A stretch of DNA of 43,824 bases, taken from an uncultured Gammaproteobacteria bacterium. GTDB lineage: Bacteria > Patescibacteriota > Patescibacteriia > 2-12-FULL-60-25. Below, one piece after another: positions 1-40,053 of the stretch. A model generated the notes under the pieces. That model was not told the DNA's origin. It made no database searches and saw only the letters and a list, made by a program, of their open reading frames with translations. The DNA lies in assembly GCA_964425575.1 (NCBI GenBank), contig CAYRMN010000006.1:1140-44963 (forward strand). The letters run 5' to 3'. How positions within the stretch are numbered: the stretch's first letter is position 1; each line of letters opens with the position of its first letter. A program made the translations under genes and the position numbers.

Positions 1-48
1 TGCGGACCGATTGTTAGCACGCCTCGGTCTGTTGCTCGCGTAACATCG

Positions 49-1584: not shown

Positions 1585-1590
1585 CCACTC

Positions 1591-1640
1591 GCCTCCGAAG
1601 CCACGGCTCGCCTCCCCCGTGTTCCTCGGAGGCATTTTTC
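1591..1640 (+). terminator. rho-independent terminator candidate
   Basis: GCCTCCGA (1591-1598) pairs with TCGGAGGC (1626-1633), followed by ATTTTT. Lies directly after the stop of the 49..1584 ORF. Confidence 0.55.
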
Positions 1641-1666
1641 GTATAAAAAATGAAAGGAAACTTAGC

Positions 1667-1696
1667 TTGACAAAGTAGAGCAAATATGTTTATATA
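1667..1696 (+). promoter_or_regulatory. sigma70-type promoter
   Basis: TTGACA (1667-1672), 17-nt spacer, TTATAT/TATATA (1690-1696). About 45 nt upstream of the SD (GGGAGGA) and ATG at 1743. Confidence 0.6.
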
Positions 1697-1742
1697 CAGC
1701 CACGTAACCGCCATTTTCGGCGGATGAACAGGGAGGATTTCG

Positions 1743-2879
1743 ATGCTCTTTTCCATGAATATCTCGAGGATGTTCGCTGCCGTGCTCGCGTTGGCGCTGA
1801 CCTGCCTCTCCACGGGGCGTGTCGCCGAGGCAGCACCGCCACAACCGACCTCGCCAGGGTCAGCGGCATCGGGAGCACACGGCGATCTGCCGAAACCGCC
1901 CCTGTCGGTCCCGAAACCCGCCGCTCCGAAGCCGCCGCCGTCTGCCAAGACGCCGCCGGCGAAGCCCGCTCCGAGCGTCAGCCCGCTCCCGGTTGCGGCG
2001 CCACAAGTGGATCCGCTCGTGGATCCATTCAGGAAGCGCTACAACGGGCTTGTTGCAGGAGACTACGGTGCCATCAAGGCGTCGACGAACCTTCTGTACG
2101 GTCTGGTTGGAACCTACGATGAGTGGAAGACCGTCGACCGGATTCTCCTGGCGGGCATGCCGAACAAGCAGCATTGGAAGCCTGCTCCGTACATGCTGGC
2201 CGTCATCAACGACCTCGAGCGCTCGATGTGCCAGGATATTTACGGGTACAGTGGATATTTGGAGGGTGTGACCCAAGAGGAGCGTGAGAAGAAGCGTGAA
2301 GTGTGCCAGTCCCGTTGGGAGGGACACCACAAGGTCACGGGAGCTCTCTTGGCCTACGTGTACGTGAAGGAGAACGCTGCACACTTCACGTCGAACGATG
2401 GTGTCATAGCGCTCAACATCGCGCACAAGGCGCTCGCGACCGTGCATGAGCTTAGTGGGGCTGCTGATCTGGGGGCCTGGATCCAGGCCAAGCTCAACGA
2501 TCAGGGCAAGGCTGATGCCAAAGCTCTGTTCACCGCAGAATACGTGGCTCCCGATTATCGGTCGGCCGCCATCGACGCCTGTCGCTACGATCTTGACGCC
2601 GCCTCGCTCGAGAAGGCGCTCAACGGTCTCGCGGCTGCCGGCAAGTCCAGTGACGAGGATCCGCGCTGGACGAAGTGGAAGGTCGATGCCCTCGCCGCGC
2701 GCAAGGCCGGCAAGTCCTGCTGGGACATTGGCTGGCGCTACCTCAGCGCCGAGACCGAATGCAAGGACAATAGGGTGCGCATCTACTATACGGACGAGGA
2801 TGCATGCCAGCTCACAGGTCCGGTTGTTCTGGAGTTTCCGAACGACCGGACGAAGGCTCGACAACTCGACATCTACTGA
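1743..2879 (+). CDS. secreted hypothetical protein with a Pro-rich linker and a Cys-containing globular domain
   Basis: Signal-peptide-like N-terminus MLFSMNISRMFAAVLALALTCLSTGRVAEA. Pro/Ala/Lys-rich stretch PKPPLSVPKPAAPKPPPSAKTPPAKPAPSVSPLP. Six Cys in the mature part. GGGAGGA SD 7 nt before the ATG. High G+C with GC-rich third positions. Confidence 0.7.
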   Translation: MLFSMNISRMFAAVLALALTCLSTGRVAEAAPPQPTSPGSAASGAHGDLPKPPLSVPKPAAPKPPPSAKTPPAKPAPSVSPLPVAAPQVDPLVDPFRKRYNGLVAGDYGAIKASTNLLYGLVGTYDEWKTVDRILLAGMPNKQHWKPAPYMLAVINDLERSMCQDIYGYSGYLEGVTQEEREKKREVCQSRWEGHHKVTGALLAYVYVKENAAHFTSNDGVIALNIAHKALATVHELSGAADLGAWIQAKLNDQGKADAKALFTAEYVAPDYRSAAIDACRYDLDAASLEKALNGLAAAGKSSDEDPRWTKWKVDALAARKAGKSCWDIGWRYLSAETECKDNRVRIYYTDEDACQLTGPVVLEFPNDRTKARQLDIY

Positions 2880-3032
2880 TCCCGCGCCTCTGACCGGAGG
2901 CGCCACGCTCGCACTCGTGCGACGATCGAAGCATTCTCTTGAACGCTTCGGCGTCGAGCGAGTGCTTCTTTCGTTACAAAGAAAACGTGTATACTAAAAA
3001 TACAGGAGTTTTATTCCTCAACTTCTATTGGT

Positions 3033-3344
3033 ATGTCTACATTTGATGAGCTTGATCGTCGGTTGCGGGAGACTGATCGCGTATTTGATCATGTCTACGA
3101 GGAGAAAAAACGCGAGACCTCGGACGAGCGCGCTCGGCTGGAGCGGGAATGGGCTGAGATGGAGGCTCGAGAGCGCGAGCTGGAGGAGCGAAGCACGACT
3201 GCGCGTCGGATGCATGACAATGCAAGCAGCAAACTGCAATATATGCGCGACAATATCGAAGCAATCACTGAGCGTGATGAGTATGATCTTGAAGCAGCGA
3301 CGACAGGCTTTGAGCGCGTGATTGAAGAGCTGCGGAGATTTTAA
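3033..3344 (+). CDS. small charged coiled-coil protein, function unknown
   Basis: 103 aa, rich in E/R heptad-like sequence (RARLEREWAEMEARERELEERS). Its 3' end overlaps the convergent proS stop by 4 nt. No family recognised. Confidence 0.5.
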   Translation: MSTFDELDRRLRETDRVFDHVYEEKKRETSDERARLEREWAEMEARERELEERSTTARRMHDNASSKLQYMRDNIEAITERDEYDLEAATTGFERVIEELRRF

Positions 3345-4762
3345 TAGGCTTGAGCAAAGTACCACTTTTCCGTGGCTGGTTTTCCGCAATAGATACAAGT
3401 ACCTTCTCCAATATCATTGGTAAAGCATCGCGTGGTGGCTTTTGTTTCTTCTTTGATGGATTTCTCACAGGCAGGGCTCCCGCACCAGAATGCCTTCAGA
3501 AACCCTCGTGTGGTGTTCATCCCTTCCTTGAAGGCCTCATAGGTTTCAACCGTATGCAGGTTGTCTGCAAGGAGCTTTTCTGCTTGGCGAAACAGTTCTG
3601 TTTGAATGTTGGTTAAGCAATTTCCCGCTTCTTGTACGAGACTTGTCAGCGCAACCGTCATTGCTTCCCCGGTATCACGACGAACCATTTTGACGGCACC
3701 CGCCTCTAATTCACGCTTGCCGATTTCAATGCGAAGCGGCACGCCCTTGAGTTCCCATTTATTGATTTTCCAACCGATTGATTCATTATCCTGTTCATCA
3801 ATTTTGACGCGATAGCCCGCTTCTTCAAGTTGCGCGGCGAGTGTTGTACAGCCAGCAAGAATCTCATCTTCTAAACGCACCGGTAGAATAACGATTTGTG
3901 TTGGGGCAAGTTTTGGAGGTAATCGCAAGCCTTTGTCGTCACCATGAACTAAAATGAGTCCGCCAATGGAGCGCGTTGAAAGTCCCCAGCTCGTTTGCCA
4001 GACGTGTTTCAACGTTCCATCTTTATCTTGAAATTCAATACCGAATGACTTGGCAAAGTTTTGACCTAGGTCGTGTGATGTGCAGCTCTGAAGTGCCTTG
4101 CCTTCAGGCATCATCATTTCATAGGTCATGGTCATATCTGCCCCAGCGAATTTTTCTGCATCAGATTTTTTTCCGAGAAGACCCGGAATCGCAAAAATGT
4201 CTCGATAGAGTTTGGCGTACGTTTCAATAGCCCAGCTTACCGTAGCAAGTGATTCTTCGTGAGTCGCATGAGCTGTGTGTCCTTCTTGCCACAAGAATTC
4301 ACTTGTCCGCATGAATAGGTAGGTTCGTTTTTCCCAGCGCACGACGTTGTTCCATTGGTTGATTTGTAGCGGAAGGTCACGCCACGACTTGATCCATTTG
4401 GCATACGTGTCGTACATGATGGTTTCGCTGGTTGGTCGAACCACGAGGCGTTCTTGCAGGACTTCATTCCCACCAATCGTAACGACGGCGAGTTCTGGTG
4501 AAAAACCTTCCACATGTTCCTTCTCGCGATTCAACAGAGACTCAGGAATGAGCATTGGAAAATAGGCATTTTCAACACCATGCTTTTTGATCTCTTTGTC
4601 GAGCTGACGTTGAATTTCTTCCCAGATGGCATAGCCATACGGTCGCAAAATCATGGTGCCTTTGGCTGGACCATAATCCGCTAGTCCTGCCTGAAGTACG
4701 ACCGCGTTATACCAGCCGGAGAGATCTTCGGAACGTGAAGGGAGTTGTTTTTGGAATGCCAT
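3341..4762 (-). CDS. proS: prolyl-tRNA synthetase, archaeal/eukaryote-like type
   Basis: Class II aaRS core (SGWYNAVVLQAGLADYGPAKGTMILRPYGYAIWE, FLWQEGHTAH). Anticodon-binding domain. C-terminal Cys-rich module ending in WYFAQAY. Start placed at the ATG at 4762 (MAFQKQLPS) rather than the longest ORF start at 4801. Confidence 0.93.
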   Translation of the reverse strand: MAFQKQLPSRSEDLSGWYNAVVLQAGLADYGPAKGTMILRPYGYAIWEEIQRQLDKEIKKHGVENAYFPMLIPESLLNREKEHVEGFSPELAVVTIGGNEVLQERLVVRPTSETIMYDTYAKWIKSWRDLPLQINQWNNVVRWEKRTYLFMRTSEFLWQEGHTAHATHEESLATVSWAIETYAKLYRDIFAIPGLLGKKSDAEKFAGADMTMTYEMMMPEGKALQSCTSHDLGQNFAKSFGIEFQDKDGTLKHVWQTSWGLSTRSIGGLILVHGDDKGLRLPPKLAPTQIVILPVRLEDEILAGCTTLAAQLEEAGYRVKIDEQDNESIGWKINKWELKGVPLRIEIGKRELEAGAVKMVRRDTGEAMTVALTSLVQEAGNCLTNIQTELFRQAEKLLADNLHTVETYEAFKEGMNTTRGFLKAFWCGSPACEKSIKEETKATTRCFTNDIGEGTCIYCGKPATEKWYFAQAY

Positions 4763-8028: not shown

Positions 8029-8050
8029 GGATTTTTTCATCAGCTTTTTT

Positions 8051-8139
8051 TGTCATTCCGACCGAGGAGTTGGATGACGAGCGGAGGAATCCCTTCGAAG
8101 GGGTCCCTCGGCTCCGTCAGACTTCGCTCGGGACGACAG
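8051..8139. repeat. palindromic intergenic repeat, family B, copy 1
   Basis: TGTCATTCCGACCGAGGAG...GCGGAGGAATCCCTTCGAAGGGGTCCCTC...CGCTCGGGACGACAG. Near-identical copy at 21539-21627. Contains the perfect 12-nt palindrome CCCTTCGAAGGG. Confidence 0.85.
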
Positions 8140-8200
8140 TAGTCGTGTCTTTTTGGCTTTAGAGAGCGGGCGCGTTTGTTTTGGCAAACATCAAGTAAAC

Positions 8201-8229
8201 TTGACAAACTTTCAAAAAAGCGCTATACT
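8201..8229 (+). promoter_or_regulatory. sigma70-type promoter
   Basis: TTGACA (8201-8206), exactly 17-nt spacer, TATACT (8224-8229). Leaves a ~140-nt leader before the ATG at 8377. Confidence 0.65.
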
Positions 8230-8333
8230 TTTTATTCAGAATACCAGAGCCGTACCTTACACGTTTTGCAGGTAACCATGAGGAAATACTCGTTTTTTCA
8301 TGGGTGCCTGCAAAGGCAAAAAACCACCCGCCG

Positions 8334-8376
8334 CACGGACGGAATCCGTGTAAGACCCATAGCCCAGGAGGCTCTC
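8334..8376 (+). promoter_or_regulatory. conserved 5'-leader hairpin plus SD (copy 1)
   Basis: CACGGA-cggaa-TCCGTG, then TAAGACCC...GCCCAGGAGGC, then ATG. Same layout with compensatory stem changes at 9130-9180. Confidence 0.5.
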
Positions 8377-8961
8377 ATGAAGCGTTTCCCTCTCGTGTTC
8401 GTCCTCGGCCTCATCGCCTGTCTCTCCATCCTCGCCGGTTGCGCGGATGTTCTCCCGAACACCGCTGATCCCCAGGCTTTCGTCGAGGAGCGCTGTGCCG
8501 AGATGGCCGAGGGATACGGCGTGCGGGTCGACCTCTGGAACGATCCGACCGCCCTTTCAGAGGAGCAGCAGAAGAAGCTTCCGGAGTGGATGCCCGCCTC
8601 GATGACTGTCGAGGGTGCGGGTGTCGATCCCATCATCTGCGAACTGAACGAGAGTGGCACGTCGATCGTCTGCCCTCTCGATGTTCAGGAGGGCGACATC
8701 CGACAGCTCCGGCTGCGCGATCAGGACGAGTCCATCCCGTACGAGAAGTACTTCGGTTGGAACTGCCACCGCGGGACCAGTGATCAACCCGACGAGCGCT
8801 ACGGCCTCGGGATCTTGCAGATGCTCGCCTGCAGCGATGGGAAGCCGGTCGGCTTCATCGATAACTGCGGGGCGTCCAATCCCGCGCTCAAGGACCTTGG
8901 GGTCACCCCCGCGGTCAATGTCGTCACCCTCACAGTCGGGACGACTCCCCCCTCCAAGTAG
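8377..8961 (+). CDS. lipoprotein, Cys-rich, function unknown
   Basis: MKRFPLVFVLGLIACLSILAGC has a lipobox (LAGC). AGGAGG SD lies 6 nt upstream. Seven further Cys in the mature part. High G+C (39/60 at 8401-8460). Confidence 0.7.
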   Translation: MKRFPLVFVLGLIACLSILAGCADVLPNTADPQAFVEERCAEMAEGYGVRVDLWNDPTALSEEQQKKLPEWMPASMTVEGAGVDPIICELNESGTSIVCPLDVQEGDIRQLRLRDQDESIPYEKYFGWNCHRGTSDQPDERYGLGILQMLACSDGKPVGFIDNCGASNPALKDLGVTPAVNVVTLTVGTTPPSK

Positions 8962-9690: not shown

Positions 9691-9708
9691 ATTCTGGAGA
9701 GGTTAGCG

Positions 9709-9806
9709 TGTCGTCCTGAGCGAGTCTGCGAGTCGAAGGATCTTCTCCATGTCAGACAGAGTAGATCCTTCGACTGCGGTGTCGGACGCCTTCGCTCAGG
9801 ACGACA
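9709..9806. repeat. palindromic intergenic repeat, family A, copy 1
   Basis: Outer arms GTCGTCCTGAGCG/CGCTCAGGACGAC enclose inner arms AGTCGAAGGATC/GATCCTTCGACT. Related copies at 17349-17445, 20635-20718 and 30095-30191. Confidence 0.85.
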
Positions 9807-15456: not shown

Positions 15457-16389
15457 ATGATCCACGAAGTTCTCATTATCGGTTCTGGGCCCGCAGGCTG
15501 GACGGCAGCTATTTATGCTGCTCGCGCGAATTTATCGCCGATTATTTTTGAAGGCTTAGAACCTGGGGGTCAGCTCATGACCACGACAGATGTTGAAAAT
15601 TTTCCTGGGTTTCCAACGGGCATTCTTGGGCCGGACATGATGACTAAGTTTCGTGAACAGGCCAAGCGGGTCGGAGCTGAAATTATCTCTGAACAGGTTG
15701 AGGCGGTAGATTTTTCATCTCGCCCGTTCAAAGTGACTTCAAAGGGAAAAACCTATGAAGCAAAGACCATAATCGTTGCCACAGGTGCAACGGCTCGTCG
15801 TCTTGGCTTAGAGAACGAGAAGAAATTATACGGTCATGGTGTCTCTGCTTGTGCGACGTGTGATGGTTTCTTTTTTAAGGAAAAAAATATCATCGTCGTA
15901 GGCGGTGGCGATTCGGCCATGGAGGAGGCCAATTTTTTAACTCGCTTTGCCAGCAAGGTCACCATCATTCATCGTCGTGACGCTTTTCGTGCTTCCAAGA
16001 TCATGCAGGAGCGGACATTTAAGAATCCAAAAATCGAAGTGATTTGGAATACGGGTGTGATTGATATTTTGGGTGCAGACGTCGGTCATGTCACTGGCGT
16101 GCGTTTGAAGAATACACAAACAGAAGAGGAGTCTGAGATGCCCATTGATGGCGTGTTTGCCGCGATTGGCCACGAACCAAACACAGCGCTCTTCAAGGGA
16201 CTGATCGATCTCGACGAGAAGGGCTATATCAAAACGACGCCCGGTACAACCCAGACTTCAATTGAAGGTGTTTTTGCTGCTGGCGATGTCCAAGATGCCA
16301 AATATCGCCAGGCGATTACCGCTGCCGGTACTGGCTGTATGGCCGCGCTTGAAGCAGAACGATTTTTGAGCGAAGAGGCTTCTCATTGA
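15457..16389 (+). CDS. trxB: thioredoxin-disulfide reductase
   Basis: GSGPAGWTAAIYAAR FAD motif, redox-active CATCDG, and GGGDSAMEEA NADPH motif. Start moved to MIHEVLIIG (ATG at 15457), because the longer ORF runs through the trxA terminator. Confidence 0.93.
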   Translation: MIHEVLIIGSGPAGWTAAIYAARANLSPIIFEGLEPGGQLMTTTDVENFPGFPTGILGPDMMTKFREQAKRVGAEIISEQVEAVDFSSRPFKVTSKGKTYEAKTIIVATGATARRLGLENEKKLYGHGVSACATCDGFFFKEKNIIVVGGGDSAMEEANFLTRFASKVTIIHRRDAFRASKIMQERTFKNPKIEVIWNTGVIDILGADVGHVTGVRLKNTQTEEESEMPIDGVFAAIGHEPNTALFKGLIDLDEKGYIKTTPGTTQTSIEGVFAAGDVQDAKYRQAITAAGTGCMAALEAERFLSEEASH

Positions 16390-16488
16390 CAGAATGGACG
16401 TTTTCTCCTATTATTTTCGCACCGTTCAGCTCGTGTTCTAAGGGTCTGGTAGCCCTTCGACACCTCTATTCTTCAATTATATTTTAAC

Positions 16489-17348: not shown

Positions 17349-17445
17349 TGTCGTCCCGAGCAAAACGGAGTGACGTCGAGGGATCTCTAGAGAAAATGTT
17401 CCTTATAGGTCCTTCGACTACGCTCTCGCTCCGCTCAGGACGACG
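17349..17445. repeat. family A repeat, copy 2
   Basis: GTCGTCCCGAGCAAAACGGAGTGACGTCGAGGGATC...GGTCCTTCGACTACGCTCTCGCTCCGCTCAGGACGAC. Nearly identical to the copy at 30095-30191. Confidence 0.85.
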
Positions 17446-17468
17446 AAAGGTGGCTCAAGCAATCTGAT

Positions 17469-18180: not shown

Positions 18181-18307
18181 TTTTTGCCAAATCGCAAAAA
18201 GAAGCAAAAAAAGATTTTGGGGGCGGCTGACCTCGCTCAACGCGAAGGCTTTATCAGGTAGATCGCCTTCACTAGATCGCTCGAACAGGCAGGCGCCCCC
18301 AAACCCC
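18181..18307. repeat. palindromic intergenic repeat, family D, copy 1
   Basis: TTTTTGCCAAATCGCAAAA...GATTTTGGGGGCGGCTGACCTCGCTCAACGC, then a central hairpin, then CTAGATCGCTCGAACAGGCAGGCGCCCCCAAACCCC. Second copy at 39765-39885. Confidence 0.85.
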
Positions 18308-18377
18308 TTGAGGGTTGTTTATAAAAAGTCTGGTAGTTTGGTTGGCAAGCGCGGCCTAAGTAAGATATGCTGTTGTC

Positions 18378-19748
18378 ATGAACACACGCATATCATTTTT
18401 TTGTCTCGTTTTATTACTTGGTGTAGTGGCACACCCTCTCCAATTACGTGCCGCGACTATTCCCGCTCGTGTAAGCGGGCAGGTGCTTTTGCAAGTACAG
18501 AGTCATGGTGAGGCGTGGTATGTGAATCCGGTTGATGGACGGCGCTATTATTTGAAGAATGGAGCAGCTGCCTATACAGTCATGCGAAAATTGGGGTTGG
18601 GTATCAGTAATGCAAATTTTGCAAAATTCATGTCAGGCAATGCCGTATTACGAGCTCGTTTGAGAGGAAGAATTGTGCTCAAAACAGAAGATCATGGCAA
18701 AGCCTATTATTTGTGCCCACGAACGGGGAGAATCGAGTATTTAAAAGATGGTGCTGCGGCGTATCAGATCATGCGTGGATGTGGATTGGGCGTGACCAAT
18801 GCAACGCTCGCGACAATTCCTCAAGCTGAGGTGTCTTTTGTTCCGCCTTCAGCGCCACCGGTCCTCCCGCCGACAGAACCTACCCCTCCGGCTATTGTTA
18901 TTCCGCCGACGACATCGATTGATCTTCCGCATATTGCTGGCTGTCAGGTATTTCCAGCAGATAATCCCTGGAATCAAGACATTTCTGCGTTGCCAGTTCA
19001 TGCAAATTCAGCGACGTACATCTCATCGATCGGTCTTAGCAAGAAGCTTCATCCTGATTTTGGCTGGAAGATTTACGGCATGCCATATACGGTCGTGTCA
19101 GGCTCTCAGCCGAAGGTGCCGATTACGTTTACAGCCTATGGCAATGAAAGTGATCCGGGACCCTATCCAATTCCCCTTGATGCAAAACAGGAAAGTGGCA
19201 GTGATGCGCATATGCTCGTTGTAGATAAAGATGCCTGTAAATTGTATGAGCTGTTTCACTCAGCTCGGACGGCTAATGGCTGGTCGGGGGACTCTGGGGC
19301 AGTATGGGATTTGAAATCAAATGCGCTTCGGCCTCTTGGCTGGACCTCGGCTGATGCGGCTGGTTTACCGATTTTGCCGGGACTCGTGCGCTACGATGAG
19401 GTCGCAGCTGGGGAGATCAAACACGCTATTCGCTTTACTGCTCCAGCAACGCAACGAGGCTATATTCTTCCAGCCACTCATTTTGCGGGCCAGAATAATC
19501 CCAGCCTTCCACCCATGGGGCTCCGTGTCCGCTTAAAAGCGAATTACGATATTTCCAAATTAACTGGTGAGGCCAAAGTCATTGCCACAGCCATGAAAAA
19601 ATACGGCATGATCCTGGCGGATAACGGTTCTTCTTGGTTTTTTCAGGGGAGCCAAGATGATCGTTGGAACGATGACGAATTGAATCAATTAAAAGTCATT
19701 CCCGGAAGTGCATTTGAAGCAGTAGAGACGGGGGAGATTCATCGATAA
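18378..19748 (+). CDS. secreted protein: two tandem ~70-aa N-terminal repeats, a Pro-rich linker and a conserved C-terminal domain of unknown function
   Basis: Signal peptide MNTRISFFCLVLLLGVVAHPLQLRA. Repeats GQVLLQVQSHGEAWYVNPVDGRRYYLKNGAAAYTVMRKLGLGIS and GRIVLKTEDHGKAYYLCPRTGRIEYLKDGAAAYQIMRGCGLGVT. Linker PPSAPPVLPPTEPTPPAIVIPP. Confidence 0.75.
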   Translation: MNTRISFFCLVLLLGVVAHPLQLRAATIPARVSGQVLLQVQSHGEAWYVNPVDGRRYYLKNGAAAYTVMRKLGLGISNANFAKFMSGNAVLRARLRGRIVLKTEDHGKAYYLCPRTGRIEYLKDGAAAYQIMRGCGLGVTNATLATIPQAEVSFVPPSAPPVLPPTEPTPPAIVIPPTTSIDLPHIAGCQVFPADNPWNQDISALPVHANSATYISSIGLSKKLHPDFGWKIYGMPYTVVSGSQPKVPITFTAYGNESDPGPYPIPLDAKQESGSDAHMLVVDKDACKLYELFHSARTANGWSGDSGAVWDLKSNALRPLGWTSADAAGLPILPGLVRYDEVAAGEIKHAIRFTAPATQRGYILPATHFAGQNNPSLPPMGLRVRLKANYDISKLTGEAKVIATAMKKYGMILADNGSSWFFQGSQDDRWNDDELNQLKVIPGSAFEAVETGEIHR

Positions 19749-20525
19749 AAAAAGACCGGCAGCTGGGGAGTCCCATGCTGCCGGCGCCACATCGTGGCAT
19801 TTTTTGTGCGAGGTCCGGGTTCCTGTAGGCGTAACAGGATAACCGGCGCGGAACAACGTAGCCCATCGGGCTTTCTACTGATTCAGGATGTGGCTCATCC
19901 CTAGCTCGTCGCCGCGGAGCATCTTTCCACAAAAGAGCGTGTTCGGATGTATGTTGGGATCGCAGCCACGCGATCTGGCCCACGCGATATCTGCTCGCGT
20001 CTTGCCTGAAGGATCAGAGGCAAAGACCTATCCGATTGGGGCATGTTCCCCACGGCCAAGTGGCCGTATGTATCTCGCGGGATCGTTCCTCCACCAAATG
20101 TGGAGCTTTCCGCGTTTTTCCTGAAGAAACACCGACCAGCTGAGTCTCCGTCCATCAATGATGGCACGTCCGGGCTAGACTCACTGCAACCCCGGGCTCT
20201 GTCTTCAAGCGGCCACTTGGGCCAGGTCCCTAGGCGAGGTTTCTCGCTTTCGGTCGAACGAACGTGGGCTAGAATCGACCGATCCGGTCGACGGGGGCAC
20301 GTGCCACCCCCTATGCCCTTGGGAAGATGCGTCCGGAGTCTATGTACTCCGCGAAGACGCTATACTCAGATGTGTTACAACCTTGGCAGGCCTTCCTGCC
20401 TTGGTAGCTACGGGAGAGTTCTCTGACCACCAGGCAAAGCGCCAAATGGCGGGGAACTTCGTACCCCCTCACTCTATCCGTTGTCCCTTAGATCGGTTCG
20501 GAGTAACTCCGCTTCGATCCTTGAC
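19747..20525 (-). ncRNA. candidate large (~780 nt) structured non-coding RNA, class unknown
   Basis: A perfect minus-strand promoter lies at 20532-20560. An intrinsic terminator (CCGGCAGC...GCTGCCGG plus a T-run) lies at the 3' end. No ORF exceeds 127 aa on either strand despite elevated G+C. Many 5-10 bp hairpins are present (see finding). TSS and 3' end are approximate. Confidence 0.55.
19755..19805. terminator. back-to-back hairpins forming a bidirectional terminator
   Basis: ACCGGCAGC...GCTGCCGG is preceded by AAAAAAA, which gives a T-run on the minus strand. The adjacent GCCAC-atc-GTGGC is followed by ATTTTTT on the plus strand, which terminates the 18378..19748 gene. Confidence 0.7.
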
Positions 20526-20531
20526 AACCCT

Positions 20532-20560
20532 ACTATACTACAGATCTCAGAATCTGTCAA
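20532..20560 (-). promoter_or_regulatory. consensus sigma70-type promoter driving the candidate ncRNA
   Basis: On the minus strand: TTGACA (complement of 20555-20560), 17-nt spacer, TATAGT (complement of 20532-20537). Embedded in the inverted repeat CCTTGACA...TGTCAAGG (20519-20562). Confidence 0.7.
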
Positions 20561-20634
20561 GGTGGGTTGTCTATGCATAAGTAAGCCAAATTTTACATAA
20601 GAACTCCCTCAATCTCGTAGGGAGAAGGTTGATT

Positions 20635-20718
20635 TGTCGTCCTGAGCTTGTCGAAGGATCTGCTCTGTCTCATGCGGAGAAGATCCTTCGATTTCGTCAG
20701 ACTCCACTCAGGACGACG
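20635..20718. repeat. family A repeat, copy 3 (shorter variant)
   Basis: GTCGTCCTGAGCTTGTCGAAGGATC...GATCCTTCGATTTCGTCAGACTCCACTCAGGACGAC. Confidence 0.8.
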
Positions 20719-20730
20719 GCGGAGGAAGCG

Positions 20731-21516
20731 TTATCCCGTCTCCGGTGCTGGTTCAGATACTCCCCACAAAAATTCAAATACGCTGTTTAGACTCTCGTAC
20801 ATGTCGGTGGAGGTGAGAACGACGGCAAATTGGCGTCCGAGACGGCCGTTCATGAAGGCGATTTTACCGTCATAGAGGTACATCAGCATGTTGAAATTGA
20901 TGGATGGAGGAACATAGCGAATATGCCGCAGAACGCTCATGCCGGACATGGAGATAAGGGGATTGAGTTTTTGTGTTTGTTGTTTTGAAATCTGAGGCCG
21001 AAGACTTTGGTGATACACGCCGGCCGCGATGCGACGCCGACTCCAATCGAGCATGAATGCCTCAGTAACACTCAATAGAAACTCATCATCATGGATCGAT
21101 CCGATAACGCGGTAGTTTTTTGTCGGGTTACGCAGAATTTCTTCCAACACAATTTTGAGTCCTTGGGCTTCGGGGAAAAAGCGGAACTTAGGAATCGCAG
21201 ACGTTTGGTGGGAGAGCGCGTCTTTTAGCAAGGGTAAGGCATGTTGGATGTCTTTGATCCGTTCCTCCATGAGTTTTTGCACCATCTCCGCATCGCAGGG
21301 TGAATACCGGGTTCGTCCTTCGCGAATACTCTCGGACAACAAGCCACGGGCAATTAAGGTTTCAAGATGACGATACACCGCCGTACGCGTCAGCTTGGCA
21401 CGTTTGGCAATATCCGCTGCTTTTGCATCTCCGAGCGTGACACAGGCGGCATAGATGTTGATTTCATCTTGCGTTAGTCCAAGATGGGAAAGGATGGCGA
21501 ATTGAGAGGGAGGCAT
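20731..21516 (-). CDS. TrmB-family transcriptional regulator
   Basis: N-terminal winged HTH LGLTQDEINIYAACVTLGDAKAADIAKRAKLTRTAVYRHLETLIARGLL, followed by a ~170-aa effector-type C-terminal domain. Divergent from the PPDK_N array. Confidence 0.8.
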   Translation of the reverse strand: MPPSQFAILSHLGLTQDEINIYAACVTLGDAKAADIAKRAKLTRTAVYRHLETLIARGLLSESIREGRTRYSPCDAEMVQKLMEERIKDIQHALPLLKDALSHQTSAIPKFRFFPEAQGLKIVLEEILRNPTKNYRVIGSIHDDEFLLSVTEAFMLDWSRRRIAAGVYHQSLRPQISKQQTQKLNPLISMSGMSVLRHIRYVPPSINFNMLMYLYDGKIAFMNGRLGRQFAVVLTSTDMYESLNSVFEFLWGVSEPAPETG

Positions 21517-21538
21517 AGAGAGTTGCTTGTATTTTCTC

Positions 21539-21627
21539 TGTCATTTCGACCGAGGAGTCCGACGACGAGCGGAGGAATCCCTTCGAAGGGGTCCCTCAGC
21601 TCCGTCAGACTTCGCTCGGGACGACAG
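21539..21627. repeat. family B repeat, copy 2
   Basis: Near-identical to 8051-8139. Lies inside the divergent regulatory region between the TrmB-like gene and the PPDK_N gene. Confidence 0.85.
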
Positions 21628-21730: not shown

Positions 21731-22669
21731 ATGAACTATACGCGACCTTTTGCGGAGCTCTCAAAACAAGACGTGGGCATCGCGGGCGGAAAGGGTGCAT
21801 CGCTCGGTGAAATGACAAAGGCGGGAATTCCCGTTCCGCCGGGTTTTGTTGTACTTGCCCCTGCTTTTGATCGCTTTTTAGATGAGACGGATTTACGACA
21901 AGAAGTCGAGGCACAGCTTGGTCGCATCAATTATGAGGATGTCGCTTCAGTCGAACGAGCTTCAGAAGTGATCCGGTCACTCATCGAAAGCGCTTCTTTT
22001 CCGGTCGATCTTGAAAAAGAAGTACAGGCGTCGTTTCAGGAACTAGGAGCGGAGTATGTCGCTGTTCGTTCTTCCGCCACCGCCGAAGATTCTTCCGCTG
22101 CGAGTTGGGCTGGAGAACTGGAGAGTTATTTAAACACTCGTGAGCCAGAACTATGCGATCGCATCAAGCGTTGCTGGGCCTCGTTGTTTACGCCACGCGC
22201 CATTGTGTATCGCAAAGAAAAAGAGCTGCATACGACGCATGTATCCGTGGCCGTCGTGGTTCAAAAAATGGTGCAGTCGGAAGTGGCTGGTATCACCTTC
22301 ACCGTCCATCCGGTTACCAAGGACGCAAATCAAATGATCATCGAAGCCTGTTGGGGTTTGGGAGAGTTTATTGTTGGTGGAATCGTTACGCCCGATTCAT
22401 ATGTCGTTGATAAGCGTGACGGCACATTGATTGATGTGAATGTGGCTGAGCAACCAGAGAAGCTCGCGCGTGGCGCGGGAGAGAACGAGCGCGTATCTGT
22501 ACCGTCAGAAAAGATGAGCCAACAAAAGTTGGATGGTAAACAGATTCGCGAGATTGGAGATATCTGTGAGCGCATAGAAAAACATTACGGCTTCCCTTGC
22601 GATATCGAATGGGCGTTTGAACAGAATACGTTTTATATCGTGCAGAGTCGACCGATTACGACGCTGTAA
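21731..22669 (+). CDS. stand-alone PPDK_N-type ATP-grasp (nucleotide-binding) domain protein
   Basis: GIAGGKGASLGEM, VAVRSSATAEDS, WASLFTPRAIVYR, VAVVVQKMV and DIEWAF...YIVQSRPIT. This is the N-terminal domain of PpsA/PPDK/rifampin phosphotransferase with nothing fused to it. Confidence 0.88.
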   Translation: MNYTRPFAELSKQDVGIAGGKGASLGEMTKAGIPVPPGFVVLAPAFDRFLDETDLRQEVEAQLGRINYEDVASVERASEVIRSLIESASFPVDLEKEVQASFQELGAEYVAVRSSATAEDSSAASWAGELESYLNTREPELCDRIKRCWASLFTPRAIVYRKEKELHTTHVSVAVVVQKMVQSEVAGITFTVHPVTKDANQMIIEACWGLGEFIVGGIVTPDSYVVDKRDGTLIDVNVAEQPEKLARGAGENERVSVPSEKMSQQKLDGKQIREIGDICERIEKHYGFPCDIEWAFEQNTFYIVQSRPITTL

Positions 22670-22677
22670 CCAACCCT

Positions 22678-24159
22678 ATGGATAGGCTTGAAATTCAAAA
22701 ATACGTTGATACATATGCATGGTATTTGTTTGAGCAAATACCGCAGTGCCCTTTATGGTTTTGCTTATCTCCGCTGAGTGCGTATGTTCGTCGACTTGAT
22801 GAATCACACGGAGTCGGTCGTTTTCGTGGTTTTTACATTTTCCAAAACGGAGATTTGTACATGTTCAAGATGGCGGGAGAGCTAGAGCATGCGGGTGAAG
22901 TATTGATTGAGAGGGATGTGCAAGAGAAAGGATTTTTGCTTTCTGTGCTGCTTGAGATTGAACAACTGAGTAATGAGTTGACGAGAGGGTCTCGTGCACT
23001 GCAGGACATGGATATAGACAATACAGAGAATAAAAAGTTAGCTGCTGTTTTTCAGCAGGTATTTGAGATCCATGAAGATCTTTGGGTAAAAGGACAAGCT
23101 ATTAATTTATTGGAACATGGGTATTCCTTATTGGGAAAGATGCTAATGAAGCTTTTAAGGCAGGACGGAGTACCTGAGAAACATGTGATCGAGATTTCAG
23201 CTGTACTAACTACGCCGGAGCGTTACAGCAATCTCCAAAAAGAAGAACAAGACCTTCTTTCCCTTGTCGAGCAAGGCGCAACCGAGGATCGAATCACGCA
23301 GCATTGGAAAAAATGGGCGTGGCTTGGTTATAACTGGCTGGGACCTGCCTACGAGCGAGAACACTTTGTTACAAGAGCTCAGCTCTTGGAAAAGGACGAA
23401 ATACGAAAAGGGTTGATAAAGACTGAAGAGCGATATCGAGAAGACGTGCGGGCACGAAAACAAAAAGTAAAAACTGATTTTAGACTTTCCAATGAAACGA
23501 TGAGGATCGCCATTCTTATCGAAGAAATAATTTTTTGTAAGGCTGCACGTGTAGATGCATCTTGGCTCTTTTATTGGAGCGTTGAGGGTCTTTTTAAGAA
23601 AATCGCAGAGGAGTACGGGCTCTCCTATATACAGGTGCAATTTTTAAAACCAGATGAAATTATTGCTGCGTTGAATGGTGAATGCGTGGATGCAGATATA
23701 TTGAGAAAGCGGAAAAGATCTTACGCTATCTTATTCCGTGACGGAATCATTGAAGAATACTTCGATGAGATTGCGACATTAATTTTTACAACCATAGGGA
23801 AAACTCTGTCTATCGACTCTTCAGAGATGCAGGAGCTTAGAGGTGATGTTGGTTCACCAGGAATTGCAAATGGAATCGTCAAAATTGTGAATATGCCGGG
23901 TGATATCTCAAAAATGCAGGAGGGAAATATTTTGGTTTCTCACACGACAAACCCAAGTTTAGTTCCTGCGATGAAAATGGCCGGGGCTATCGTCGCAGAT
24001 GTAGGAGGTGTTACCAGCCACGCCGCGATCGTTGCGCGCGAACTCAAAAAGCCTTGCATCATCGGCACGAAGATAGCCACGAAGGTCCTCAAAGACGGTG
24101 ATGAAGTCGAAGTTGATGCGGAAAAGGGAGTGGTGAGAATCTTAAAACGAGCCTCGTAA
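22678..24159 (+). CDS. phosphohistidine swivel-domain protein, paralog 1 (long helical N-domain plus PEP-utilizers mobile domain)
   Basis: C-terminus GSPGIANGIVKIV...NILVSHTTNPSLVPAMKMAGAIVADVGGVTSHAAIVARELKKPCIIGTKIATKVLKDGDEVEVDAEKGVVRIL. The ~400-aa N-terminal region was not recognised. Confidence 0.85.
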   Translation: MDRLEIQKYVDTYAWYLFEQIPQCPLWFCLSPLSAYVRRLDESHGVGRFRGFYIFQNGDLYMFKMAGELEHAGEVLIERDVQEKGFLLSVLLEIEQLSNELTRGSRALQDMDIDNTENKKLAAVFQQVFEIHEDLWVKGQAINLLEHGYSLLGKMLMKLLRQDGVPEKHVIEISAVLTTPERYSNLQKEEQDLLSLVEQGATEDRITQHWKKWAWLGYNWLGPAYEREHFVTRAQLLEKDEIRKGLIKTEERYREDVRARKQKVKTDFRLSNETMRIAILIEEIIFCKAARVDASWLFYWSVEGLFKKIAEEYGLSYIQVQFLKPDEIIAALNGECVDADILRKRKRSYAILFRDGIIEEYFDEIATLIFTTIGKTLSIDSSEMQELRGDVGSPGIANGIVKIVNMPGDISKMQEGNILVSHTTNPSLVPAMKMAGAIVADVGGVTSHAAIVARELKKPCIIGTKIATKVLKDGDEVEVDAEKGVVRILKRAS

Positions 24160-24162
24160 ATT

Positions 24163-25269
24163 ATGACTTTTAAGATGAACCCAACGATCAAAGATTTTGA
24201 ATTGACCTTTGAGGGTCAAGGCATGCCATATATTTATGAACGCTTTTTGTATGCCTACTATCTTCCTGCGAAGTCGGTCTCGATTATTAAGAATGGGGTT
24301 GTTCAGGAATTCATGCACAAGGACACGCTTGAGGAGATGAATCAGGAAGGCCTGAGGCTTACTCCGAAAAAAGTTCAGGACTTGATAGAACAAATGGACC
24401 TAACTGTTCAAAAGAATAAAAAGGAGATGGAAGAGATTTTGAAAGAACCGTTAACCAAAGAGTCCCTTCAAAGAGCATTTCGCAATGTGGGAGAAGTAAC
24501 TAGGGCGTATTATTTTTTTGACCCACATTTTTTTGACGGAATTTTTGCCACATCACTTCACGATCCTCAGGCGGCAGAAGTCGTACGACTGGTTCAAGAA
24601 TATAAGAATGTGGCCCGGGAATATTTTAATCACGTTCATTTTGGAGAGACAGGAGATATTCCTCGTGTACTTTTGTGCCTGAGTCTCCAGACCGGCATCT
24701 CGTTCGAGGAATTACAAAACTATACGGAAGATGAGCTTGTTCTCATTATTGATAGCGTGAGGGTGCCGCAAGAGATTATCGCTGGCCGAAAGAGGTTGTA
24801 TGTTCCGTGGTGCGACGAATCTGGAAAACAGGTGGGGGAAATAGCCGGTCAGGAGGCGGAAGAATTTTGCCAACAGTTTTACGCGAGCAAAGAGGCGTTT
24901 GAAGGAGAGATATTGAAAGGAAAAACCGCCCACTCATCCCCATCTCTGGTACGCGGCATCGTGAAGTGCATCACACGAGACTACAACGATGTGAAGCGCA
25001 TGTACCGACAGATGGAGGAAATGAAGCAAGGGGATATTTTGGTCACACAAACGACAGATCCCGAAATGATGCTTGCACTTCGCAAGGCATCGGCAGCCAT
25101 TACAGATATCGGTGGTATGTTGTCGCATACGGCCATCACCGCCCGAGAACTCAATATCCCGTGCATTGTCGATACCAAATTTGCTACTCAACGTTTGCGA
25201 GATGGGGATGAAGTTGAAGTTGATACGGAGAAGGGGATCGTAAGGATTTTGAAGCGCGCGCAGAAGTGA
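24163..25269 (+). CDS. phosphohistidine swivel-domain protein, paralog 2 (most divergent)
   Basis: C-terminus DILVTQTTDPEMMLALRKASAAITDIGGMLSHTAITARELNIPCIVDTKFATQRLRDGDEVEVDTEKGIVRIL. Confidence 0.85.
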   Translation: MTFKMNPTIKDFELTFEGQGMPYIYERFLYAYYLPAKSVSIIKNGVVQEFMHKDTLEEMNQEGLRLTPKKVQDLIEQMDLTVQKNKKEMEEILKEPLTKESLQRAFRNVGEVTRAYYFFDPHFFDGIFATSLHDPQAAEVVRLVQEYKNVAREYFNHVHFGETGDIPRVLLCLSLQTGISFEELQNYTEDELVLIIDSVRVPQEIIAGRKRLYVPWCDESGKQVGEIAGQEAEEFCQQFYASKEAFEGEILKGKTAHSSPSLVRGIVKCITRDYNDVKRMYRQMEEMKQGDILVTQTTDPEMMLALRKASAAITDIGGMLSHTAITARELNIPCIVDTKFATQRLRDGDEVEVDTEKGIVRILKRAQK

Positions 25270-25285
25270 TTTGAATCCTTTGTCT

Positions 25286-26380
25286 ATGTCCTCAAAATAT
25301 AAAGGAGCGTTAAGAGAATATACGGTCGTAGGTATTTCGGCTGTGTTTCGGGCGATTATTTCGAAAGAATTTTCGGATTTCTTTGGTGGGAAAGGTTTAA
25401 GCAAGATTCTGTTTGTGGCTCGTGAAGATGGCTTCTGGCATTTTCAATCAGAGGAAGAAGTCTGTGGATTGGCGGATGCCTTTCTGTCCCGCGTAGAGCG
25501 GAAAGAACTCGATCTAGAAGCCGTATATCGTGATCTCGATGCGAGAGTAACGCGGCTTGAGAGTATTTATGCCAAGACGAAAGCAGACTACAACTTTGAT
25601 TTGATTCTAGGGTTTTATGAAGTCTACACTTCATTGATTCCATTCGCGTATGCCATTGCCTATAGCGGAGATAGATTAGAGGCCGTTACTCAGGATGCGG
25701 CCACACGGCAGGAGTACCTCAATTGGCTGACGAAGGCGCGTCTTCGGGCAGAGAATATTTATAAACAAGGTGAAATGTTTTTTATCCCGGCATACATGAC
25801 CTGGCTCTCAAAAAAATTATCTCGAGCCTATACCCCAGAACTTCTTCAATATCTCATGCATACGGAATTGGTTCATTTGGCGAAAAATGAAGGTGTTTTG
25901 CCTACAGTTGCTGAGTTACAAGCAAGAAAGACGCTGATGTATGCCAGCTTCTCATCTACAGGAGAAGAATATCTGACCGGGACAGCTGCCGCTCATCGTA
26001 TTCAAGAACTGGGATTATTTGAAGAAGGGAGTGTAGATACGCAAAATGTGACGCATTTCAAAGGTCAGACCGCGTATGGTGGCAGAGCAACGGGAAAAGT
26101 CCGATGTATCTTTAAGCGAGCAGATTTAGAAACGTTTGTAGAAGGTGAAATCATCGTCTCTCCCATGACTGATCCGAGCTATCTATCGGTGATGAAAAGA
26201 GCGAAGGCGTTTATTACCGATGAAGGCGGTATTTTGTGTCATGCCGCCATTGTGGCGCGTGAATTACAGAAGCCCTGCATTATCGGCACCAAAATCGCCA
26301 CCAAGGTCCTTAAAGATGGCGATGAAGTCGAAGTTGATGCGGAGAAAGGTATGGTCAGAATATTGAACAAAGCTTCGTAA
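25286..26380 (+). CDS. phosphohistidine swivel-domain protein, paralog 3
   Basis: C-terminus EIIVSPMTDPSYLSVMKRAKAFITDEGGILCHAAIVARELQKPCIIGTKIATKVLKDGDEVEVDAEKGMVRIL. ATG at 25286 chosen; a TTG at 25271 is an alternative start. Confidence 0.8.
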   Translation: MSSKYKGALREYTVVGISAVFRAIISKEFSDFFGGKGLSKILFVAREDGFWHFQSEEEVCGLADAFLSRVERKELDLEAVYRDLDARVTRLESIYAKTKADYNFDLILGFYEVYTSLIPFAYAIAYSGDRLEAVTQDAATRQEYLNWLTKARLRAENIYKQGEMFFIPAYMTWLSKKLSRAYTPELLQYLMHTELVHLAKNEGVLPTVAELQARKTLMYASFSSTGEEYLTGTAAAHRIQELGLFEEGSVDTQNVTHFKGQTAYGGRATGKVRCIFKRADLETFVEGEIIVSPMTDPSYLSVMKRAKAFITDEGGILCHAAIVARELQKPCIIGTKIATKVLKDGDEVEVDAEKGMVRILNKAS

Positions 26381-26525
26381 CATGGAGAAGATTGTATGGG
26401 AGAAATATATTGAAAGAAAACAGCCTTAGTTTGGGGCAGCGGCTTTTACTGAACCGTACGGCTCTCTTCTTTATGAGGCAACGGGTTTTGGTTTTCGTCA
26501 TCAGCTCTACATCTATCAGGCGGGA

Positions 26526-27467
26526 ATGTGTACCTGGTTTCATGATGAGCGGGAAGCGCGTTTCGCCGATCAGTATTTCTTAGATCTCGTCCTGAGGCAG
26601 GATCCACGGCTTTTAGAATGGAGAAGCGAGGGTGATAGATCTAATCTTCATGCTGATTATCTATTACATCAGTTTACGAAAGGCGAGCCCATTTTTGGAG
26701 CAGATCAATATAGAAAACTCGTGGTGGAATTTCAAAAAATTATGCTGTATGGAACGGTCATTCCATATCGGATTCCGTCCGCAATCAACAGTTTAGATGA
26801 AGAGAGACGCATGGAAGAGGCGGTGATCCAGGCACTGCATCTGTTTGAGCCTCTGCGTGCACAAACCCGTTATCCGCAACTTGTACAGAGTATTTTTCAA
26901 AAGTATTGGGAGTTTGCTTTTCAAGAATGCGGCCTCGACCCCTTGATGGGATCTTTGCTCACACCTCAGGAGTTCCAACAGTTTTTAGACGATCCCACGT
27001 CAGTAGATCGTTCCACTCTCTCTAAAAGAGAGGCATGGTGTTGCTTTTGGACCGACGGATTATCTTCAGACATTCACATTACCACGGACCGAGAAGCCAA
27101 GAGAGATTTTGAGATTCCGATCCTATGTATCGAAGCCTCCAATGAGTTACAGGGTCGAACTGTTTATCCGGGGAAGGTGCAAGGAAAGATTCAAATTGTG
27201 AATACAATCGAAGATATGCAGAAATGCTCGCCTGGCTGTATTGTCGTCTCCATCAACACTAGTCCATCAATCATGCCAGTTTTAAAACAATGTGCCGCTA
27301 TTATTACTGATGAAGGTGGCATCACCTGTCACGCCGCAATTGTATCCCGTGAACTTGGAAAACCCTGCATCATTGGTACGAAGATCGCTACCAAAGTTCT
27401 CAAAGATGGTGATAAAGTTGAAGTTGATGCGGAGAAGGGCATTGTGAGAATTTTGAAACGGAATTGA
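26526..27467 (+). CDS. phosphohistidine swivel-domain protein, paralog 4; the N-terminus is interrupted by an in-frame TAG (possibly truncated or a pseudogene)
   Basis: C-terminus CIVVSINTSPSIMPVLKQCAAIITDEGGITCHAAIVSRELGKPCIIGTKIATKVLKDGDKVEVDAEKGIVRIL. The same frame is open from the ATG at 26382 except for TAG at 26427-26429. Confidence 0.65.
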   Translation: MCTWFHDEREARFADQYFLDLVLRQDPRLLEWRSEGDRSNLHADYLLHQFTKGEPIFGADQYRKLVVEFQKIMLYGTVIPYRIPSAINSLDEERRMEEAVIQALHLFEPLRAQTRYPQLVQSIFQKYWEFAFQECGLDPLMGSLLTPQEFQQFLDDPTSVDRSTLSKREAWCCFWTDGLSSDIHITTDREAKRDFEIPILCIEASNELQGRTVYPGKVQGKIQIVNTIEDMQKCSPGCIVVSINTSPSIMPVLKQCAAIITDEGGITCHAAIVSRELGKPCIIGTKIATKVLKDGDKVEVDAEKGIVRILKRN

Positions 27468-30094: not shown

Positions 30095-30191
30095 TGTCGT
30101 CCGGAGCAAAACGGAGTGACGTCGAGGGATCTATTAAGAAATGTTTCCTTATAGATCCTTCGACTACGCTGTCGCTCCGCTCAGGACGACA
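30095..30191. repeat. family A repeat, copy 4
   Basis: Nearly identical to the copy at 17349-17445. Confidence 0.85.
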
Positions 30192-30244
30192 AATATGCGG
30201 ACAACTAGAACGCTTTGTTGCGCATATGCTAAACTTCTCTGACT

Positions 30245-39764: not shown

Positions 39765-39885
39765 TTTTTGCCAAATCGCAAAAGTACCAAAAAAGATTTT
39801 GGGGGCGGCTGACCTCGCTCAACGCTTCGACCAGCTGAAGCTGGTCATCGCTAGATCGCTCGAACAGGCAGGTGCCCCCAAACCC
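39765..39885. repeat. family D repeat, copy 2
   Basis: Same flanks as 18181-18307, but the central hairpin is replaced by GACCAGC-tgaa-GCTGGTC. Confidence 0.85.
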
Positions 39886-40053
39886 CATGGGAAAAATCCG
39901 TGTAGGGGCAGACTTGTATGTCTGCCTTTTGTGTTTGTTTGATGTATCCGATCCTCACGTTCCATCCGGTGATGGGAAGTAAGGGAGGGAAGGGAGCAGC
40001 GAGGGGATAGGTGCTGCTCCCGAAGAGGGGTGTCCCGCCGGGAGGGCGGGAGA

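Follow-up and report, generated by a model that had tools for sequence, protein, structure and literature searches.

We analysed a 43,824-nucleotide (nt) stretch of contig CAYRMN010000006.1 from assembly GCA_964425575.1 (hereafter the window, to which all positions refer), in which a first-pass annotation had singled out the interval 19747–20562 as a likely large, structured non-coding RNA (ncRNA) encoded on the minus strand. The window is part of the core chromosome, with genes for ProRS, RNase Y, TruB, IF-2, TrxB, KhpA and TrmD, and homologs of its TrmD and TrmB-like proteins identify the host as a member of the Patescibacteria. The interval lies between a gene for a secreted-type protein of 456 amino acids (aa) without a Pfam domain (18378–19748, plus strand) and a gene for a TrmB-like winged-helix regulator of 261 aa (20731–21516, minus strand). 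The element lies between a promoter and a similarly oriented intrinsic terminator, and from these sequence signals we infer a transcript of ~779 nt (19747..20525, minus strand), referred to here as the RNA unit. The raised G+C content previously remarked upon for this ~0.8-kb interval was borne out by measurement, with values of 0.58–0.60 in the RNA unit compared to 0.46–0.52 on either flank and ~0.48 for the genome. The minus-strand unit probably represents a discrete non-coding transcript, and the evidence for its boundaries, its lack of coding capacity and its structure is presented below.

The putative promoter of the RNA unit consists of a -35 hexamer, TTGACA (20555..20560, minus strand), and a -10 hexamer, TATAGT (20532..20537, minus strand), separated by a spacer of 17 nt. 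A sigma-70-type consensus scan scored this site, which had been described as a textbook promoter at 20560–20532, as an 11/12 match. Sites of this quality are rare, with three, the one at the RNA unit included, in the ~41.8 kb scanned. The second (16386–16414) directly precedes the rpsP-khpA-trmD operon, and the promoter of the RNA unit is therefore of the grade used for highly expressed genes. The third, TTGACA-17-TATACT (8201–8229, plus strand), is located just past a repetitive extragenic palindrome (REP)-like element and falls inside the 5' end of a listed open reading frame (ORF; 8176–8961), the true start of which is probably further downstream. Given the usual distance of ~7 nt from the -10 hexamer, transcription of the RNA unit would be expected to start at ~20525 (±3).

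Two symmetrical sequences overlap this promoter. A perfect palindrome, ACAGAT-N6-ATCTGT (20540..20557), lies inside the promoter spacer and is the sole perfect copy in the window, making it a candidate operator that the TrmB-like protein, the gene for which is just upstream, may recognise. The promoter is also bracketed by an inverted repeat, CCTTGACA ... TGTCAAGG (20519..20562); its presence agrees with the first-pass annotation, but the CCTTGACA/TGTCAAGG 8-mer occurs in two copies in the window, which is approximately the chance expectation (mean 1.4). Further upstream, a boundary region (20595..20720, minus strand) composed of a REP-like palindrome (GTCGTCCTGAG...CTCAGGACGAC) and a CUCCCU...AGGGAG-UUCUUAU hairpin following the TrmB-like gene sets that gene apart from the RNA promoter. 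The REP-like palindrome belongs to a family with copies at 20626–20720, 9700–9778, 17349–17447, 30095–30193, 8045–8139 and 21533–21627, which share the core GTCGTCC(T/C/G)GAGC ... GCTCAGGACGAC, are intergenic and located at gene ends, and give rise to spurious small ORFs such as '...RPELVEGS...'.

At its other end, the RNA unit is closed by a G+C-rich hairpin (19756..19784, minus strand; pair probability 0.98), the core of which pairs CCGGCAGC (19756–19763) with GCTGCCGG (19777–19784). The stem, CCGGCAGC...GCUGCCGG, lengthens to 13 bp and is followed on the minus strand by a U7 tract, UCUUUUUUU (19747..19753), read directly from the sequence, so that the stem and T-run noted previously at 19784–19756 constitute a strong intrinsic terminator. 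Our consensus terminator scan missed this hairpin solely because its outer loop exceeds the 8-nt limit of the scan. The 56-nt 3' segment comprising the terminator hairpin and a 5-bp neighbour folds with a free energy of -32.6 kcal/mol (z = -5.9). The terminator scan did recover a weaker, opposing terminator, GCCAC-atc-GTGGC followed by TTTTTT (19786..19805, plus strand), which serves the convergent secreted-protein gene, and the two terminators thus stand back to back. Were the interval non-functional DNA, a possibility considered further below, the minus-strand hairpin would exist only as the reverse side of the terminator that serves the convergent gene. However, the convergent gene has its own adjoining terminator, and the minus-strand hairpin with its U7 tract is both the stronger of the two and not needed by the plus-strand gene; it therefore serves the minus strand.

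Several lines of evidence argue against a coding function for this interval. The largest ORF in the region encodes 127 aa, in agreement with the earlier statement that no frame exceeds this length, and no long ORF appears when TGA, TAG or TAA is read as a sense codon, leading us to reject a recoded gene. A log-odds score for codon usage, trained on 22 of the window's genes and taken as the best of six frames, was negative throughout the region in all 300-nt windows tested, compared to a mean of +0.28 and a minimum of +0.04 for gene windows read in frame. At the protein level, the concatenated six-frame translation had no match at E ≤ 10 among 5.8 billion proteins, so that the degraded coding sequence that the first-pass annotation had raised as a concern found no support. 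A Pfam search of the six frames returned two sub-threshold chance matches only, and a search of the 127-aa ORF against 1.84 billion representatives returned repeat or low-complexity artefacts only. Likewise, tblastn with genes from equivalent positions in related loci detected no similarity in the region, and we rejected on this basis both decayed aminoacyl-tRNA synthetase or RNHCP genes, which occupy the syntenic position in a relative, and decayed copies of the genes that neighbour homologs of the secreted protein.

It is conceivable that the transcript is instead translated into at least one small protein, or derives from a recently inactivated gene, given that minus-strand ORFs of 53, 88 and 95 aa are present and that a 20-residue stretch gives a sub-threshold match to Zn_ribbon_11 (21.4 bits against a cut-off of 24). 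However, the region contains no convincing small ORF led by a Shine-Dalgarno sequence, the one case being a 34-codon GTG ORF with a weak GGAG, and the 95-aa ORF runs through the terminator. In combination with the negative codon scores in all frames and the absence of protein matches in the searches described above, these observations make a coding origin very improbable.

The interval is unusually dense in short hairpins. Counting perfect hairpins with stems of at least 5 bp and loops of 3–8 nt, we found 16 in the region compared to 4.2 ± 2.1 in 1000 dinucleotide-preserving shuffles, the maximum among shuffles being 12 (0/1000 reach 16), and eight with stems of at least 6 bp compared to 1.0 ± 1.0. 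Comparable counts occur in ~1% of windows in 553 kb of other genomic loci, mostly those of extreme G+C content. The RNA body (19799..20479, minus strand) holds 14 of the 16, with stems of 5–7 bp and loops of 3–7 nt, and in its 3' half the hairpins are spaced ~36 nt apart. Those listed in the first-pass annotation were all recovered, at 20052–20067, 20089–20105 (nested in 20076–20114), 20234–20247, 20275–20291, 20334–20351 and 20385–20400. The nested structure it reported at the 5' end was likewise found, as a three-tier stem-loop of 49 nt (20480..20528, minus strand) composed of GUUGUC/GACAAC, GGAUCG/CGAUCU and CGGAG-uua-CUCCG, in which the two inner helices have base-pair probabilities of 0.92–0.98; in isolation this stem-loop folds at -20.8 kcal/mol (z = -3.5).

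Folding energies of the complete unit are consistent with the hairpin counts. The 780-nt minus strand has a predicted minimum free energy of -332.6 kcal/mol, corresponding to z-scores of -6.2, -8.3 and -5.5 with 20, 16 and 60 shuffles, respectively, while the plus strand ranges from -4.2 to -4.8. Thirty control folds of the same length across the window gave z-scores from +2.2 to -5.0, making the RNA unit the strongest of the windows sampled, and the outlier at -5.0 fell to -3.2 on refolding. This second-lowest value belongs to positions 1000–1779 (minus strand), within a region (1–3400) of large ORFs that lack a Pfam domain (49–1584 and 1743–2879 on the plus strand, with 1860–2906 overlapping on the minus strand) and have low codon-usage scores; the gene models there are uncertain. 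A second segment with a G+C content of 0.59, at 40.5 kb, gave z-scores of only -1.0 and -1.2, and composition alone therefore does not explain the signal from the RNA unit. That segment contains a 518-aa ORF (40054–41610, minus strand) without a Pfam domain and several overlapping plus-strand ORFs, and it may be foreign DNA. Individual 160-nt windows of the RNA region have modest z-scores. G-U pairs able to extend the hairpins number 10 on the minus strand compared to 3 on the plus strand, and the assignment of the RNA to the minus strand follows from this bias together with the slightly more stable minus-strand fold and the orientation of the promoter and terminator.

We also examined whether the excess structure resides in local or in long-range pairs. 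With the base-pair span restricted to 50 nt or less, z-scores already reached -4.6 for the minus strand and -5.4 for the plus strand, whereas the energy gained from long-range pairing was not above that of shuffles (z = +1.0). The hypothesis that nested long-range complements of 11–13 nt account for the low folding energy accordingly failed. These results do not bear out the ornate long-range fold of the OLE, GOLLD and ROOL type to which the element had initially been likened. Because the excess structure is local, the unit would represent a hairpin-array RNA and not one compacted by long-range pairs. The feature demonstrated here is a chain of ~17 short, perfect hairpins that are unrelated in sequence, with no global fold. 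The body also includes a predicted three-way-junction domain (20219–20057) closed by a perfect helix of 10–11 bp, in which 20219–20210 pairs with 20066–20057 with a probability of 0.97 (the inverted repeat spans 11 nt at 100%); based on the folding model, this helix is a reasonable candidate for a long-range interaction.

The near symmetry of the local hairpin excess between strands, and the fact that the stems are perfect Watson-Crick palindromes, would also be expected of an element acting at the level of DNA, such as a single-strand origin, a cluster of recombination or binding sites, or a landing pad for a nucleoid protein. Yet every palindrome has a different sequence and there is therefore no common binding site, the palindromes are enclosed precisely by the promoter and terminator, and the 37 large ORFs of the window scanned with Pfam encode no replication, recombination or mobility domain. 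Cumulative GC skew has no turning point at the region, which also led us to reject a replication origin. We thus regard a DNA-level role as highly unlikely.

Comparison with known RNA classes began with Rfam 15, against which the first-pass annotation had recommended a covariance-model scan. No match was obtained for the whole window at gathering thresholds, and with permissive filters at E ≤ 10 there were six chance matches to small, unrelated families, the majority of these matches falling on the terminator hairpin; no model reached E = 1. The RNase P, signal recognition particle (SRP), 6S and tmRNA models and those of group I and group II introns had no match at E ≤ 10, and ARAGORN detected no tRNA or tmRNA in the window, in accordance with the first-pass annotation, in which RNase P, tmRNA and group II intron signatures could not be matched. 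A divergent or degenerate member of a known family, whether the remnant of a group I or group II intron or an expanded RNase P, SRP, 6S or tmRNA, would be compatible with the size and G+C enrichment of the unit, and lineages of the Candidate Phyla Radiation (CPR) often have divergent versions of universal RNAs. Set against this, in addition to the Rfam and ARAGORN results, the unit is intergenic and has its own promoter and terminator instead of being inserted in a gene, and we give this explanation little credence.

Among large bacterial ncRNAs, OLE (ornate, large, extremophilic) RNA is similar to the RNA unit in being a stand-alone ncRNA of 0.6–0.8 kb that is highly paired, G+C-enriched relative to the genome and located among chromosomal housekeeping genes. 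OLE RNA is described from Bacillota hosts with adjacent genes for OLE-associated proteins (PMC9723947, PMC12054373). The RNA unit differs in belonging to another phylum, the Patescibacteria, in having a TrmB-like regulator and a secreted protein as neighbours with no gene for an OLE-associated protein, in lacking a match to the Rfam OLE model at E ≤ 10, and in showing no long-range architecture beyond chance. GOLLD and ROOL are likewise large (0.6–0.8 kb) RNAs of orphan function that contain no ORF and are known mainly from metagenomes, and they often occur in a prophage or tRNA-cluster context. In contrast, the window contains no tRNA, scans of the 37 large ORFs revealed no integrase, transposase, reverse transcriptase or phage domain, neither model matched, and the RNA unit had no blastn or pattern match in phage and viral collections.

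A second comparison is with TIGR stem-loop arrays, in which tandem, variable, palindromic stem-loops are carried on one precursor that ends in an intrinsic terminator, in CPR bacteria and phages, and whose units contain two spacers of 8–12 nt flanked by conserved box C/D motifs (PMC12045711). The RNA unit shares the tandem arrangement of variable palindromes, the terminal intrinsic terminator and the CPR/Patescibacteria host, and it is therefore worth considering that it is a precursor cut into many small hairpin RNAs, that is, a guide or adaptor array of the TIGR type or an analogue of it, as its perfect hairpins and the ~36-nt spacing in its 3' half might suggest. However, no Nop-domain Tas gene was detected among the 37 large ORFs by Pfam (the C-terminal half of the TrmB-like protein being less certain), and PADLOC reported nothing beyond the helix-turn-helix of the TrmB-like protein. 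Moreover, neither conserved box C/D-like motifs nor any other repeated motif is present, and loops of 3–7 nt are too short to hold two 8–12-nt spacers. We consequently rejected a TIGR array in the strict sense and judge a precursor array in general to be improbable.

In overall architecture, the RNA unit most resembles, by analogy, the multi-hairpin protein-sponge RNAs of the CsrB/RsmZ type, which act in trans and likewise consist of a chain of short hairpins, with a strong promoter at one end and an intrinsic terminator at the other. It differs from these in being two to five times longer and in having no repeated loop motif, and a GGA sponge of the CsrA type was rejected because GGA is not enriched in the loops. 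Comparison with the REP-like palindromes of this genome, or bacterial interspersed mosaic elements (BIMEs), was also warranted since these are intergenic palindromes with one copy immediately upstream (20626–20720), but the 0.78-kb unit has no sequence in common with these palindromes and occurs once in the window. Other candidates were discarded as well: a diversity-generating retroelement template repeat would require a direct repeat shared with the 3' end of the adjacent gene and a reverse transcriptase, and neither was detected, the latter in the scanned ORFs, and an antisense regulator of a window gene is not supported given that the longest complementarity, 13 nt, is at chance level.

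The first-pass annotation had also proposed that homologs be sought in relatives, and none were found by any route tried. A distant-mode blastn search against phages and plasmids had no match, nor did nhmmer with the 816-nt query against 85 collected loci (553 kb). The six-frame search of 5.8 billion proteins, designed to detect also any spurious ORFs annotated on homologous RNAs, and the search of 1.84 billion representatives likewise revealed no homolog. The 80 metagenome loci around homologs of the secreted protein gave no nhmmer match at E ≤ 10 and contain no comparable gap, while three trmD-bearing relatives gave no nhmmer match at E ≤ 100 and only chance-level blastn matches. We additionally employed a back-translation scan in which a reading frame of the RNA is treated as a pseudo-protein and represented by six degenerate 24-nt patterns per frame; six such patterns had no confirmed match in 185,579 GTDB species genomes, and 18, covering three reading frames of the RNA, had none in viral contigs. 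An exact-protein look-up of three window proteins found none on record.

The neighbouring genes provide some indication of the history of the locus. TrmD has homologs of up to 78% identity, labelled Patescibacteria or Candidatus Uhrbacteria, and in three relatives with TrmD proteins 74–77% identical the order RNase Y-TruB-IF-2-...-TrxB-S16-KhpA-TrmD is kept, after which follows a gene for a cation ATPase and/or orotidine monophosphate decarboxylase on the opposite strand. The TrmB-like protein matches winged-helix-turn-helix regulators only, its AlphaFold model (pLDDT 42) is too poor for a fold search, and it has a single homolog among the 5.8 billion proteins (47% identity), encoded in the Patescibacteria metagenome-assembled genome GCA_029004215.1. 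In that genome the TrmB-like gene is divergent from phosphoenolpyruvate (PEP)-utilizer genes, and the next gene after it, in the place expected for the RNA unit, encodes a class II aminoacyl-tRNA synthetase. The present window shows the same pairing of regulator and PEP-utilizer genes: divergent from the TrmB-like gene is a split PEP-synthase/PPDK-like cluster (21731–27467) in which four paralogs arranged in tandem follow a stand-alone PPDK_N gene. Every paralog ends in a PEP-utilizers mobile domain, and the 3' ends of the paralogs are 65–72% identical in DNA.

On the other side of the RNA unit, the 456-aa secreted protein has no Pfam or NCBIfam match and more than 570 metagenomic homologs (best 61–73% identity; best full-length match 61%). 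These are encoded on unrelated contigs with G+C contents of 0.27–0.77 and without shared neighbours, which suggests horizontal spread, and the gene has probably been transferred horizontally. An intergenic element of ~130 nt that precedes this gene (18181–18310, plus strand) recurs at 39765–39889 (plus strand), where it is followed by a terminator-like hairpin (39904–39929). The outer stem, UUUGGGGGCG.CUG.CCU / AGG.CAG.GCCCCCAAA, is conserved between the two copies, the single C-to-U substitution preserving pairing as G-U, and the 25-nt centres have different sequences, yet each folds into a hairpin (GAAGGC...GCCTTC and GACCAGC-tgaa-GCTGGTC). This two-copy element, which has no Rfam match, is a candidate small structured RNA or leader.

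These observations on the neighbourhood raise the possibility that the interval is non-functional DNA, either a foreign fragment of higher G+C content or a fully decayed gene at a rearrangement junction, with a fortuitous promoter. The unit is located at a lineage-specific synteny break, a position it shares with the probably transferred secreted-protein gene and with repeat elements; the best homologs of that gene (61–73%) reside in unrelated contigs with G+C contents of 0.44–0.63, suggesting horizontal transfer; another segment with a G+C content of 0.59 is present at 40054–41610; and no homolog of the region was found. This explanation does not readily account for a fourfold excess of hairpins reached by no shuffle, for the ordinary folding of the other G+C-rich segment, for the strength of the minus-strand hairpin and its U7 tract, for the rarity of 11/12 promoters in the window or for the lack of protein similarity in any frame. 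Although it deserves serious consideration, we regard it as unlikely.

Based on the data presented above, we propose that the interval is a transcription unit for a structured ncRNA. Transcription would start at ~20525 from the near-consensus sigma-70-type promoter, the 49-nt stem-loop would cap or protect the 5' end of the RNA, the body would form an array of short, G+C-rich hairpins, and the strong intrinsic terminator, adjoining the oppositely oriented terminator of the convergent gene, would end the RNA. The RNA would then have its effect in trans, its likeliest role being that of a scaffold or sponge that engages one or several RNA-binding proteins in a ribonucleoprotein (RNP). Its transcription, stability, action in trans and binding of protein are all inferred from the sequence. 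By analogy, the hairpin-array architecture appears to fit a protein-binding scaffold or sponge better than it would a ribozyme-like compact fold, but a scaffold or sponge mode specifically can be put forward with considerable doubt only.

Several observations weigh against this interpretation. No loop motif is significantly enriched, GGA among them, and although ACAU occurs 8 times compared to 1.9 expected, this is not significant after correction for 256 tetramers. With extended complementarity to the rest of the window also absent, neither a loop motif, a target complementarity nor a partner gene backs a specific mechanism. The excess of local pairs is almost strand-symmetric and long-range pairing does not exceed that of shuffles. 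Searches by all routes returned no homolog that could lend support from covariation or conservation. Finally, the unit sits exactly at the synteny break, with relatives differing both after trmD and after the TrmB-like gene, and it is therefore possible that it is recently acquired or fast-decaying DNA, the G+C content of which may derive from foreign origin and not from structural constraint.

Weighing both sides, the original proposal of a large structured ncRNA stands insofar as it concerns a discrete, non-coding, hairpin-dense unit that belongs to no known family, while support from homologs did not materialize. Whether the region encodes a functional structured ncRNA that is under selection and belongs to a new family is, in our estimation, evenly balanced. 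A possible, if tentative, reading is that the RNA unit is the first known member of a family of ~0.8-kb hairpin-array ncRNAs in CPR/Patescibacteria that would form the RNA core of an RNP. As it stands, the unit is a well-defined lead, a single unconserved example rather than an established new class.

Very few bacterial ncRNAs longer than 500 nt are known, and OLE, GOLLD and ROOL are each associated with unusual biology; to our knowledge, no large ncRNA specific to CPR/Patescibacteria has been described. The genomes of CPR/Patescibacteria are ~1 Mb in size and have little room for idle DNA. Given such small genomes, and a promoter of the highest strength placed amid housekeeping genes, the unit would point to an RNA-based function that has so far gone unrecognised in this large branch of uncultured bacteria. 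The value of the unit lies in being a precise lead, with exact predicted ends, strand and hairpin map. If our interpretation is correct, these reduced, symbiotic cells would possess an RNA whose promoter equals in strength the one driving a ribosomal-protein operon.

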